From: Eledone cirrhosa
Lineage: Eukaryota
DNA: 64,000 nucleotides
Direction of reading: 5' to 3'
NCBI GenBank assembly: GCA_964016885.1
Contig: OZ024741.1
Span: 237,336,001-237,400,000 of the forward strand
Positions within the stretch are counted from its first letter, which is position 1, and each line of letters opens with the position of its first letter. Under the pieces are notes generated by a model. It did no database searches and was not told the origin of the DNA. It saw only the letters and a program-made list of their open reading frames with translations. Of the stretch, positions 5,669 through 28,539 are shown in pieces. Made by a program: the position numbers and the translations under genes.

Positions 5669-5725
5669 TATATATATATAATACGATATATTAACAAATG
5701 GAAACTATATTTATAAAACCATATT

Positions 5726-5790
5726 TATTTCATTATACATATTTCAAAGACACCAAGTTAAATTATGGTGTGCTTTCATCAGATAAAATA
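5726..5790 (-). ncRNA. Type I hammerhead ribozyme (family B1, inverted copy)
   Basis: Exact reverse complement of 5897-5961. Confidence 0.75.
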
Positions 5791-5896
5791 TAATATAGAT
5801 CTGTTGGAAGCTCCCGGATATCCGGGAGCTTCCAACAGAAATGGTCGCATTCTTTAAGGATATGTCAATACTTATTTATAAAACTGATCTATATTA

Positions 5897-5961
5897 TATT
5901 TTATCTGATGAAAGCACACCATAATTTAACTTGGTGTCTTTGAAATATGTATAATGAAATA
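5897..5961 (+). ncRNA. Type I hammerhead ribozyme (family B1)
   Basis: Stem I TATTTTAT/ATGAAATA, core CTGATGA, stem II AAG-C-ACACCA..TGGTGT-C-TTT, then GAAAT-ATGT-ATA (AUA cleavage triplet). Confidence 0.8.
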
Positions 5962-6228
5962 AATATGGTTTTATAAATATAGTTTCCATTTGTTAATATA
6001 TCGTATTTTTACTCCAATAATTTACATACACTTTTTCACTATACGTATACATATGAGCATACACTTTTATGCACATCTGTGAGCGTATTTACATACATAT
6101 ATACACACCTAACTGTATTTTCTTGATAAATTTTTATGTATCTCAATCTTTATTTCATTGGTCTATTCAAAATCTGTTCCCAAACAGACCTATTATTTTG
6201 AATTGTTGTTATTATCAATAAACAAGCA

Positions 6229-6369
6229 TCATTATTTCTGAAGACAGCATATATATGTGAAGGTATGTATATTCTCTCTGATAGTTTGTATAATTTTGTA
6301 CATTGATCTTTTGAATATGCATACCAATTCTAACACATATATGTCCTAGAAACGATCGTAAAATAATGA
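6229..6369 (+). ncRNA. Type I hammerhead ribozyme with long stem/loop II insertion (family B2)
   Basis: 9-bp stem I TCATTATTT/AAATAATGA, core CTGAAGA, stem II ATATATATGTG/CACATATATGT, and GAAAC-GATC-GTA with a palindromic stem III. Confidence 0.75.
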
Positions 6370-6639
6370 ACTTTTTTTGTTTAATATAAGGAACTGTTTC
6401 TTTGTTTATTCATTATTTTTTTAATAATTTATATATATATATATATATATATATATATATATATATAGAGAGAGAGAGAGAGAGAGAGAGAGAGAGAGAG
6501 AGAGAGAGAGAGAGAATATTTACGTATCGAGAGAGAGAGGAGGGATTGGCGATACATGTAGTTATTTGCCAATAACGTATGCAGAGGATGCTCAATACCA
6601 CTGCCGGCAGTGTTAAATATTAGAAGTGTTAATATCTAG

Positions 6640-25527: not shown

Positions 25528-25574
25528 TACTAACGATCGTTTCATCCAAGCACAGGGCCGTATTCATCGGAGTA
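25528..25574 (-). ncRNA. Hammerhead-like motif with CCGAUGA core
   Basis: Minus strand TACT-CCGATGA-(weak stem II)-GAAAC-GATC-GTT-AGTA. Confidence 0.5.
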
Positions 25575-26340
25575 TAAATCAAAAGTTAGAACACAGATAA
25601 CTTTGTTAAAGAACATTCTGGGGATACCACATATGGGAAGAAAGCGAAAATAATAGATTTAAGAGAGGAAAGCAAGAAACACACGAAAAGCATGATCATG
25701 TAAATATGATTAAGAATCAACAGCAAGAGGCATTAAAAACAGGCTGATATAAAGGAAAGAAAAAAGAAAAAACCTGCTATAATGAATTTAAGCATAAAGT
25801 AGGCATATCGTGCATTGACAAATTTACACACAATATAAGCAATACAACATTCTATAAAAGCTAGTGCATGGATCAAATATAAACTTAAATTTAAGAATGT
25901 AACAATAATCTTCAAGGTACATTTTTAATATATTTCTATAATAAAACGTTCAGCTCCATTTTTCAGTTCTAAGTATATAGATGATCTATTATACTTCAAA
26001 TGTAGTCAGCAAAATAGACGTTAAACTGCTAAAATATCGTTATTATCAAAGATGATCAAACCACTCGAGATTATTAATATAGAGAGAATGATTAGCAAAG
26101 TAAGGTCCAATATATAATAGTTGCTATCATCTGCAAAAAGGTGCCACATATAAGAATATGATGCAGAAAGTCATATATTAATTCTAGATGACACCTTCTT
26201 AACATAAGATTTTTAAATCTATCAAATAACGGTTGATGGAGGAAGGGAATGAAAGGGAGGTAATTCATATATATATATATATATATATATATATATATAT
26301 ATATATATATATATATATATATATATATATATATATATAT

Positions 26341-27186
26341 GGTACGACAACCAGAGATACCAGAGTGTCATGTTCGTGGATGCTACCCCTGGAGGGAAAT
26401 TAGCTAAACAATGTAGAAAGGCCCTAAGAAAGACCCATCTAAAGATTAAAGTGGTAGAAAATCCAGGAGCTACCATAAAAAGCAAGACAACCCACTATAG
26501 AAAACCCACTATACGAATAAGAAATGTGTTATATATATAGAATGAACCCCCAGATAAATTGTAAAACTAGAAATGCAGTCTATAGCATAAGATGTACAGC
26601 GGATAATTGCAGAAACATGACAATGACATACATAGGTGAGACAGCTCGAAGCATAGGAGAGAGAATAGACCAACACCGGGGAGAACTGAAAGGACACAAA
26701 AACGGCTTAGTACTATATGAACACGCCAGACAAAGACATGACGGTAATATAGACAACATAGAAATTAAAATAATATCCAAGCATAGACTCAACAGGTAGG
26801 CAAATCAGAAAAACAACTGAGATAGAACTAAGAAAACCAAAGTTAAACAGAAAGAACGAATGGAACAACAACAACAATCATACCCAAACAAACAATACTG
26901 ACCTAAGGGAAATATAAATAAGTAAATAGATATATACACAAGTACAATAACAACAAATACATATAAACACACACTAGTGAACAAAGATAGAATACAAAAA
27001 CAAAAGCACTCAAACACGACACACACACCAAAAATTAAAGACACACGCAAACAGAGACAGGGACAAGAAGAACTAAATAAATAAATTAAATTAAAATGGC
27101 GTAGGCATTTCAATACAACGGGAGGAAACATAATAGTACCACTGATGATGTCACAGATCTGTGACGAAAGAACTTTGATAGACTAT
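26341..27186 (+). mobile_element. Second, 5'-truncated copy of PLE family A (GIY-YIG + 3' end)
   Basis: Highly similar to 7890-8756. ORF 26524-26799 reads CKTRNAVYSIRC..YIGETARSIGERIDQH..LYEH...H. Starts at a (TA)n tract. Confidence 0.9.
27133..27186 (+). ncRNA. Minimal type I hammerhead motif at 3' end of PLE family A copy 2
   Basis: CTGATGA-T-GTCACA-gatc-TGTGAC-GAAA-GAAC-TT, with a perfect 6-bp stem II. Confidence 0.65.
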
Positions 27187-27270
27187 ATATATATATATAT
27201 GACTATCCAGAGAATATTCAACTGATAAGGTATGATTTTCCTGGGTATGTCTCTATTTATAAAACAAATT

Positions 27271-27334
27271 TTGTATTATCTGAAGAAAGCGTACCAAAGT
27301 CTTTTGGTACCCTTGAAATATATATAATAAAATA
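27271..27334 (+). ncRNA. Type I hammerhead ribozyme (family B1 variant within 27200-27380)
   Basis: CTGAAGA-AAG-C-GTACCAAA-gtct-TTTGGTAC-C-CTT-GAAAT-ATAT-ATA-ATAAAATA. Confidence 0.75.
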
Positions 27335-28441
27335 AATATGGTTTTATAAATATAGCTTCCATTTATTTAATATCATTGTATATATATATATATATATATA
27401 TATATATATATATATATATATATATATATATATATATATATATATATATATATATATATATATATATATATATATATATATATATGTGTGTGTATTTTTA
27501 ACCGCTGGTCAATCACTGATTGCCAGATAAATTAACAGTTACAGAAGCGGAAACCAACCAATATATATATATTGATTAAACCTTAACATATTTCTACTCG
27601 TAATTTGTCTAAATTAGTTTGAACTCTTTAAATGGGACTTGCTTGGGGCTCTTTCTAGCACTCATTAAGGCCTGTCCTATCATATCTGTTAAACGTTGTT
27701 TTAACATGATGTGGAGAACCTTTTCAAAAATTATCCGTGAGCAGAAAACTACTGTTTTCGTACAATGTGAGATATATATAACCAAGACCGAACCATACCA
27801 ATGAAGGGAATCAAGGTCTTGGGATGCTCATTACTAAATCGATAATTGGTGATTGATACTAATTACTGATATCAAAGGTTTGCAATCTTCTTTTTTTGTT
27901 TTTAAAAACAGATATGTCTATGGAATTGTAGGCCATTATAACATCTTGAAGTATGTATTTTTATTTAACTTTGATAACTTTGATAGGTTTCTGCTAGTAT
28001 TGGCCCAGGCCATGTCTAACTTATTTTTTGTGGACACCATGCTTTGCGGCGTAGAGTTACGGCCCTTTACCGTCTGTTTTAAAATCCTGCTACGGTTAGC
28101 TTTGTCTTACATCCTTACGTCGTCGATAAAATAAAGTACCAGTCGCGCACTGGGGTCGATTTAACCCCACCCCCCCCCAATTGTTGGCCTTGTGCCTAAA
28201 TCAGAAACCATTTTTTTTTTCTGTATATATGTACAAAATAGTAGCTCTTTCTCAATTGATTTATACTATTAGATATCGTTTAAATTTATAGAATTGATGC
28301 TCTGAACTAAAGTTTTCATGGAGCTTCGTACAGGCGAAACCCCAGCGTAACAAGATTCACTGTATTTAGCCTTAATAAAATGAATATATATATAAGAGTG
28401 AAGAATAACATGGTCAACTGTACAAAAAGGGTTTTATTTAT

Positions 28442-28539
28442 AGTATTAACAATTGTTTCATTGATCAGGTGAGTCTAAAGGCCGCTAATCACTCGACCTT
28501 AAATACAGTGTGTGTCTCTGATCAAATCATCGGAATACT
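28442..28539 (-). ncRNA. Hammerhead motif with CCGAUGA core and extended loop II
   Basis: Minus strand AGTATT-CCGATGA-t-TTGATCAG..CTGATCAA-t-GAAAC-AATT-GTT-AATACT: perfect 6-bp stem I, 8-bp stem II, palindromic stem III. Confidence 0.7.

Follow-up and report, generated by a model that had tools for sequence, protein, structure and literature searches.

The question raised by a 64,000-nucleotide (nt) stretch of Eledone cirrhosa DNA (assembly GCA_964016885.1, contig OZ024741.1, forward-strand positions 237,336,001 to 237,400,000; hereafter the window, numbered from its first letter) is why 13 hammerhead ribozyme (HHR) motifs are gathered within about 23 kb of it, and whether the motifs are all of known kinds. 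Judged from the sequence, this cluster is real but ordinary in kind, and what is new appears to be a permuted, branched hammerhead in a further repeat, named family I here. We consider it quite probable that the region is a chain of 5'-truncated Penelope-like elements (PLEs) and their derivatives at TA microsatellites, each with a 3' hammerhead, together with a 518-nt repeat which carries a non-circular hammerhead, is predicted to self-cleave as a monomer and is likely of Naiad descent. The motifs, their families, the links to open reading frames (ORFs), the 3' ends at (TA)n, the nesting, the density and, for the permuted motif, the covarying helices are direct observations.

Permuted hammerhead motif of family I

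The two permuted motifs, at -14653 and -14135, were absent from the list of 13 in the initial annotation of the window. They lie in the 1.4 units of a non-coding repeat (518 nt, 39% GC). The best 40 genome matches to 201 nt of it were all 100% identical, and several of these were in tandem at 510-518 nt. CUGAUGA is found at 14653 and at 14135, with GAAA 27 nt upstream. Comparison with homologs showed that the strands follow each other in the order X strand, hairpin Y, stem II, I-II helix, stem III', UH, stem I', 3-nt linker, stem II', GAAA, stem III, internal loop, I-II partner, stem I, CUGAUGA and X partner. The features of family I in the window are:

14068-14781, minus: family I, 1.4 units of the 518-nt non-coding tandem repeat, very young
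14642-14742, minus: permuted hammerhead copy 1, core 14653, H17 14697
14124-14224, minus: permuted hammerhead copy 2, core 14135, H17 14179; 518 nt downstream of copy 1 on the same strand
14742-14739 with 14645-14642, minus: helix X strands of copy 1, hairpin Y following the first strand
14717-14712 (upstream strand) with 14686-14681 (stem II'), minus: stem II of copy 1
14711-14706 with 14666-14661, minus: I-II helix of copy 1
14702-14699, minus: stem III' of copy 1; the stem III strand follows GAAA and is itself followed by a predicted kink-turn (k-turn) loop
14698/14697, minus: U16.1/H17 of copy 1, predicted cut 3' of 14697
14696-14690 (stem I') with 14660-14654, minus: stem I of copy 1, a 3-nt linker following stem I'
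14680-14677 and 14653-14647, minus: GAAA and CUGAUGA of copy 1

The blocks stand in the order site, GAAA, CUGAUGA (S-G-C), which is a non-circular permutation, with covarying stems I and III. Stem II is branched, with helix X and hairpin Y, and is completed by the upstream strand at the A9/10.1 link. Family I was also considered as a type II hammerhead, but no pairing exists between the strand that follows CUGAUGA and the one preceding GAAA, and this reading was given up.

A 34-place GAAA...CUGANGA pattern was matched exactly 21,850 times genome-wide and not once in the reversed control, and twice in the window against 0 matches in 100 shuffles. Among the first 14 matched loci, which were unselected for pairing, 12 had upstream stem III and stem I strands at the predicted offsets, with 4-5 of 5 and 5-7 of 7 pairs plus most of the I-II helix. 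Simple repeats had replaced the upstream strands partly in locus L311 and wholly in L318, and L317, one of the 12, has C at U16.1. In an alignment (A4) of 19 rows and 36 pairs, built from 11 of these 14 loci, the window and 7 others, 89% of the cells were paired, compared with 31-46% in slid controls. Double changes were found in 19 of the 36 pairs, including 5 of the 6 pairs of the I-II helix; covariation occurred within pairs of six of the seven helices, and on four of five measures A4 was matched by 0 of 500 shuffles. CUGAUGA was followed by at most one stem II pair (16 of 19 rows) and then by helix X. The hammerhead core bases were invariant or nearly so in A4, position 7 being variable.

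Among 31 genome copies, position 17 was A or C in 27, and the 3-nt linker between stem I' and stem II' was TAA in 26. On a pairing count out of 18, 24 of these copies reached 15-18, and the chance controls, which were 80 of at least 118 loose-pattern metagenome matches, reached at most 12. The tight permuted pattern had no match in metagenome contigs and the permuted pattern none in viral contigs, and its two matches in prokaryotes both lacked upstream pairing. Tandem unit lengths were 470, 518-528 and 630-633 nt. At loci L160, L196 and L439, diverged families show this permuted layout with stem sequences of their own.

A kink-turn has a C-G pair, a 3-nt bulge and tandem G-A/A-G pairs. By sequence, the loop that separates stem III from the I-II helix agrees with this consensus in the 23 of 31 copies with an intact upstream strand: -1b/-1n was C-G in all 23, 1n was A in all 23 (selected on), and 2n was G in 18, U in 4 and A in 1.

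Probable relation to Naiads and comparison with published permuted hammerheads

It has been reported that Naiads, a group of PLEs, are without canonical HHRs, and their 3' ends were annotated with "HHR_core" and "HHR_half_core" (accessible parts of PMC8557442). Naiad consensus 3' ends were read by eye in passages of the supplement, with names taken from file order, and the Naiad layouts given below have this basis. The layout of family I, down to X, Y and the internal loop, recurs in Naiad_Obim and Naiad_Ovul. A branched S-G-C layout with longer helices, in which a G10.1-C11.1 pair comes from the upstream strand, was seen in Naiad_Bfor and three Acropora Naiads. Octopus, coral and ctenophore consensus sequences share the layout of family I, whereas clean type CSG was seen in three nematode Naiads (two Nippostrongylus, Haemonchus) and in two further passages; one arthropod-region passage fitted no layout. 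From the shared RNA layout, family I likely descends from a Naiad-type terminal repeat, and the permuted motif is likely the ribozyme that Naiads were reported to lack. Family I differs from these elements in having no ORF; the upstream ORF with N-terminal GIY-YIG, CxC and DKA that marks a Naiad was not found for it. A search for an autonomous Naiad with a pattern modelled on the octopus Naiad motif gave three matches, of which L439 has the full layout and none has an ORF.

That the permuted motif is a true hammerhead of other PLE or satellite origin, its likeness to Naiad tails being convergent, seems unlikely. Such an origin would fit the lack of a Naiad ORF beside 33 permuted motifs, the mere three matches to the octopus-modelled pattern and the S-to-G spacing, which is 3 nt shorter in the octopus Naiad motif, but the octopus Naiad has helix X, hairpin Y with a near-identical loop and the internal loop in common with family I, as well as the same 23-nt spacing from GAAA to the core. 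Slightly less probable still is that family I carries a structure for protein binding or packaging, k-turn or box C/D-like, with a hammerhead resemblance only. The internal loop that fits a k-turn, weak Rfam C/D snoRNA matches (E 2.7-7.3) and the discontinuity of stem II with CUGAUGA would agree with it. However, a structure of this kind would leave unexplained the nearly invariant core with its variable position 7, the U-H (H not G) placed exactly between covarying stems III and I, and the clean type CSG of nematode Naiads at the same place.

Descent from a Naiad tail, with a hammerhead predicted to cleave, is the reading preferred here. We lean, with less confidence than for the region as a whole, towards a wider form of it, in which permuted hammerheads are the standard ribozyme of many Naiads (in ctenophores, cnidarians, nematodes and cephalopods), include a seventh layout that is opened at A9/10.1 and gated by a kink-turn, and here drive amplifying circular RNA parasites of 470-630 nt in more than 20,000 copies.

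Type-SGC hammerheads, as described in the accessible parts of PMC10085705, share with family I the order site-GAAA-CUGAnGA, the same core, the 3-nt linker between stem I and stem II, and a helix joining the distal ends of these stems. In the published SGC and CSG forms stem II comes straight after CUGAUGA, so that block C is uninterrupted; in family I it is branched (X, Y) and completed by the upstream strand, and a k-turn is predicted between stem III and the I-II helix. Family I breaks the assumption used by Eckert et al. to enumerate hammerhead forms, as far as that source was accessible. The published permuted examples given there come from metatranscriptomes and metagenomes, with only one GCS candidate in genomes of known organisms. 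In the literature on non-circular permutation, type-SGC and hammerheads in octopus or cephalopods, where coverage of subscription papers was limited, none describes the layout of family I. One 2026 paper does not mention Naiads, and the main text of a 2026 Octopus vulgaris repeat annotation contains neither "ribozyme" nor "hammerhead".

By its anatomy (non-coding tandem units of 470-633 nt, 39% GC), family I would work like a non-LTR (long terminal repeat) retrozyme (PMC7229834; 10.64898/2026.07.22.740005). It was not filed as a canonical member: retrozymes of 170-400 nt carry a type I HHR in each unit, and family I is longer, with its motif in S-G-C order.

Type I motifs and their families

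The 13 type I motifs of the window have their cores at 5905, 6238, 8712, 9067, 12899, 21865, 27142 and 27280 on the plus strand and at 5782, 16017, 19359, 25570 and 28533 on the minus strand, in agreement with the start coordinates given for them initially. Twelve of the 13 score at least 10 on a type I descriptor (CUGAnGA, GAAA and UH in order, with stems I-III), which permits a long stem II, a 10.1-11.1 mismatch and C at position 4; earlier descriptors were too strict and were relaxed on the same motifs, so that this pass rate is not independent, and the independent controls are the shuffled, reversed-sequence and random-block sets. The motif at 12899, in a family B copy, failed because U16.1 is replaced by C. 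As a check proposed with the initial annotation, 200 local dinucleotide shuffles of 5601-28700 gave a mean of 0.03 motifs and a maximum of 1. The half-motifs reported there were found to be shortened copies (5' halves at -12576 and +13556, a 3' half at 13241), and the descriptor at 10 or above gave nothing across 29-64 kb, where none had been seen initially from 30 kb on. The second proposed check came out negative: Rfam cmscan of the window gave no hammerhead family at E<=10. Rfam miRNA matches in the window were rejected as microsatellites or the family H inverted repeat.

The estimate of about eight families was borne out by eight genome searches, with 520-3441 first-look candidates each. 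The features of families A-H in the window, with their class assignments as read from sequence, are:

5680-6018, both strands: family A, head-to-head inverted pair of Hydra-clade PLE 3' ends
5726-5790, minus: left-arm HHR of this pair, core 5782, short 3' end at (TA)n
5897-5961, plus: right-arm HHR of this pair, core 5905, extending into the tail and cut by family B
6020-6432, plus: family B pseudo-LTR (pLTR) of a young Hydra-clade PLE; HHR 6229-6369, core 6238, 104-nt stem II hairpin, 8-nt palindromic stem III
6640-8968, plus: family C, broken Neptune-type PLE; reverse transcriptase (RT) and C-terminal GIY-YIG pieces 6640-8454, HHR core 8712, tail to 8968
8952-9241, plus: family D, putative non-LTR retrozyme, 290 nt of the 339-nt unit; canonical-type type I HHR 9060-9105, core 9067
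12038-12528, minus: piece homologous to the interior of family F
12554-13582, both strands: nest of family A halves and family B pieces
12554-12659, minus, and 13473-13582, plus: family A half-motifs of the nest, head-to-head
12657-13475: family B pieces in a TA run between the A halves; B copy core 12899 (U16.1 changed), 3' half-motif with GAAA at 13241
15915-19223, minus: family A long copy; broken Hydra-clade ORF 19112-17342, 3' untranslated region, HHR core 16017, end at (TA)n, inverted tail 19112-19223
19234-20003, minus: family E, very young Neptune-type PLE, 3' end; core 19359 of a minimal HHR whose stem I is weak
21234-22134, plus: family F, 3' part of a unit of about 2.0 kb; HHR core 21865
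25398-26253, minus: family G, older Hydra-clade PLE, 3' end; CCGAUGA core 25570 of the HHR
26340-27536, plus: second family C copy; GIY-YIG piece, HHR core 27142, internal TA run split by an A copy
27243-27381: family A copy within the second C copy; HHR core 27280
28384-29150, minus: family H, Hydra-clade PLE, 3' end and inverted 5' piece; HHR 28442-28539, core 28533, 67-nt stem II region

Six families (A, B, C, E, G and H), with 11 of the 13 motifs, are the 3' ends of coding PLEs, and the expectation that most motifs belong to non-coding families had to be given up. Only D (the 339-nt retrozyme) and F (a 2-kb unit) are without an ORF. In other respects A-H agree with the initial picture of minimal type I hammerheads of PLE terminal repeats and of a retrozyme in a retroelement nest.

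Families A, B, G and H were assigned to the Hydra clade, for which RW, DKT and CxCX5C are diagnostic marks (PMC8557442, in part). Locus L177 of family A has the structure pLTR-ORF-pLTR with RWR, DKT and CxCX5C, and locus L034 of family B has the same marks between direct pLTRs; the A and B translations contain C-terminal GIY-YIG, the CxCX5C linker and DKT, with RWR instead of RWK. Since Hydra ORFs with direct pLTRs were found, the inverted pairs were no longer read as a DNA transposon. A Hydra-type ORF lies upstream of the HHR in 5 of 15 family H loci (L164, L166, L172, L173, L175) and in L300 and L301 of family G; these remnants are collinear with the HHR and match the A and B ORFs at 28-48% by tblastn, and N-terminal motifs were not seen in them. 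Families C and E, with C-terminal GIY-YIG and a CX2-5CxxC linker, are Neptune-type (Neptune or Nematis). For E a full pLTR-ORF-pLTR copy was found (L183, with DKG and CX4CxxC). For C the ORF link comes from the window ORF and 10 of 15 loci; L130 shows the CX4CxxC linker, and DKG was not seen. Hydra B, with copies 98-99% identical, and Neptune-type E are the young families here.

Family D is a non-coding tandem unit of 339-342 nt (40% GC, longest ATG ORF 54 amino acids) with a type I HHR in each unit, and appears to be a non-LTR retrozyme, being the same in these respects as published ones; its contigs from three runs of one sample show high copy only. Family F is an ORF-less unit of about 2.0 kb with direct terminal repeats, unlike retrozymes of 170-400 nt. 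A piece of about 500 nt within F also stands alone (window 12038-12528, L180), which suggests a captured mobile element.

In all seven families profiled, 3' ends were sharp and at TA, and 5' ends ragged. Two 3' end classes, short and long, occur in A and B, which fits two internal RT start sites as described for PLEs (PMC11167929, in part). The tails between short and long ends measure about 90, 140 and 150 nt in A, B and H (L052, L164, window 13325-13475). The A, F and H tails start with a similar CTCCAA.AAT motif, which may be a common RT recognition site. In family A copies L051, L057, L060, L065, L067 and L069, many inverted 5' junctions lie at one short palindrome about 75 nt upstream of the core. 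As to nesting, a family A copy divides C at its internal TA run (27201-27475), and two A halves enclose family B pieces (12554-13582). Where two members of one family lie closest together in the window, they are on opposite strands, and thus a single transcript would not contain both.

An A-like set of type I motifs had double changes in 17 of 23 pairs, equalled by 0 of 500 shuffles (rows selected by the descriptor); the family B set had them in only 2 of 47 pairs, and its stem II hairpin of 104-116 nt gave a fold z of -4.1. Among copies picked by homology, the motif was intact in 24 of 25 for A, 10 of 15 for C, 17 of 25 for D, 15 of 15 for E, 14 of 15 for F, 3 of 15 for G and 14 of 15 for H. 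Per-position conservation, calculated for family G only, gave 0.067 for the core and 0.066 for other positions, that is, no extra conservation.

The type I part of the window is known in kind. According to the accessible parts of the sources, hammerheads in pLTRs, palindromic stem III and weak, dimer-dependent activity have been described (PMC4209133; PMC6765202), and a Hydra family is already listed for Octopus bimaculoides (PMC8557442). The motifs here share with those of PLE pLTRs (PMC4209133) and the Hydra clade (PMC8557442 File S2) the type I layout, palindromic stem III, position near the 3' end, an extra or mismatched base at 10.1, (TA)n targets and inverted 5' copies; U-U at the base of stem II is also in the published Hydra table. 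They differ in stem III (mostly a perfect 8-nt palindrome, versus 9-10 nt in published Hydra rows), in stem II regions of up to 67-116 nt (104 nt in the 6238 motif and 67 nt in the 28533 motif; under about 25 nt in those rows), in the CCGANGA cores (CCGAUGA, with C at position 4, at 25570 and 28533) and in tails of about 90-140 nt versus 30-40 nt.

Density of type I motifs in the genome

To set the background, 50 random 20-kb blocks from 20 chromosomes (0.9994 Mb of the 3.0-Gb genome) were scanned. They contained 125 type I motifs, against 1 in reversed and 1 in shuffled sequence. The density is 125 per Mb (bootstrap 89-165), i.e. about one per 8 kb, which sets these motifs apart from PLE HHRs in the published material available, and extrapolates to about 3.7e5 motifs in the whole genome (2.7-4.9e5). 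No motif was found in 15 of the 50 blocks and at least 9 in two; the best 20 kb of the window has 9. Counted as separate insertions, these 9 exceed all random blocks (maximum 6), and its 7 families exceed the maximum of 6. A fitted tail of 0.4% for 9 insertions leads to about 600 equal blocks genome-wide. The window, whose hot spot was chosen after the fact, is a genuine local hot spot, yet one of hundreds. Of the "hidden cluster" first proposed, the motifs and the local excess are real, but in density the window stands at the upper end of what is found genome-wide.

The random-block motifs fall into at least 32 type I families; 58 of the 125 are in inverted same-family pairs and 12 in short tandems. 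A (TA)5 lies within 400 nt downstream of 112 of them, compared with 29% of random positions, and motif counts rise with the number of TA tracts (rho 0.44, p 0.001). The stem II region exceeds 45 nt in 24, and as scored only 14 begin stem II with G-C. The random blocks (L196-L295) also show additional tandem retrozyme-like families with a spacing of about 310 nt (L246-L247, L185). Around the cluster, the 30 kb of left flank and the right side to the window end were covered. The left flank has 1 motif and only 3 TA tracts, and the motif-free half of the window has two long C2H2 zinc-finger ORFs, 43008-44060 (+) and 58364-59923 (-). The zinc-finger region has its best named full-length match in Octopus sinensis (49%), and the window RT has one named relative, from Argonauta.

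A special, selected ribozyme cluster, for instance a transcript-processing or terminator array, is very improbable: the excess of insertions and families over all 50 blocks and the nearly empty flanks (0 motifs in 29-64 kb) would suit it, but the fitted tail predicts about 600 such blocks, the motifs lie on both strands with several cut short or mutated, they are without exception ordinary members of high-copy families that meet at TA runs, and the C2H2 ORFs on the right and scarce TA tracts on the left go with the empty flanks.

Proposed mechanism and points against it

For the passive retroelement nest preferred here, we infer that the PLE endonuclease and RT nick TA runs and begin to copy RNA at fixed internal sites immediately 3' of the hammerhead, and nearly every insertion, even a short one, would therefore retain a hammerhead. 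The TA runs added by each insertion would become targets in their turn, and hot spots would build up where genes are sparse. On their own, type I motifs whose stem III is an 8-nt palindrome would be poor at folding, and they would require a dimer or a protein. The permuted motif is predicted to self-cleave as a monomer, since with a true 5-bp stem III it would fold as such; its upstream strand would complete stem II in a branched junction at A9/10.1, and the predicted kink-turn would join stem III to the I-II helix. Two cuts would release a 518-nt unit, which could circularise and be re-inserted by the protein of a helper PLE.

Several points weigh against this explanation. In A4 the fifth measure, further pair types, is not above shuffles (480 of 500); the rows of A4 are related rather than independent, and four copies that had large indels or a replaced 5' part are not among them. 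The partner of 10.1-11.1 is ambiguous, with 3 of 19 rows unpaired, and in the Naiads G10.1 is given by the upstream strand, which adds to the ambiguity. A stem II split at A9/10.1 is outside the six published layouts and might not fold. No Naiad ORF or RT motif was seen upstream of 33 permuted motifs, most loci having 1.5 kb of flank only, and Naiads were reported as long inactive in cephalopods (PMC8557442, in part), whereas family I is very young. Among the type I motifs, monomer minimum free energy folds of most copies were no better than shuffles (9 of 12 with z > -2), and only 3 of 15 family G copies passed the descriptor, so that many of its copies are decaying. For the one PLE with in vitro data, the HHR cleaved only with protein present, and insertion did not depend on this cleavage (PMC11167929, in part).

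Other features of the window

29273-29345, minus: tRNA, Rfam 64.8 bits, anticodon per alignment CUU (Lys)
39.4-42 kb: 58-nt tandem array of about 47 copies within a degenerate 31-nt repeat region
24860-24930: plus-strand CTGATGA preceded by a GAAACGCTC half-motif on the minus strand; no layout fits

Significance

The estimated 2.7-4.9e5 type I motifs per genome exceed the published counts of 126,247 for axolotl, about 9,000 for Xenopus and about 5,000 for mussel, which were obtained with different descriptors, and as Rfam sees no hammerhead in the window, such motifs could help to classify unlabelled cephalopod repeats. If the reading of family I is true, non-circular permutations, so far a matter of uncultured RNA samples, would be present at high copy in animal genomes, and the added layout would break the assumption behind the enumeration of hammerhead forms. 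The k-turn, if true, would offer a host protein a handle on cleavage, and the permuted motif would explain why Naiads appeared to be without a hammerhead.

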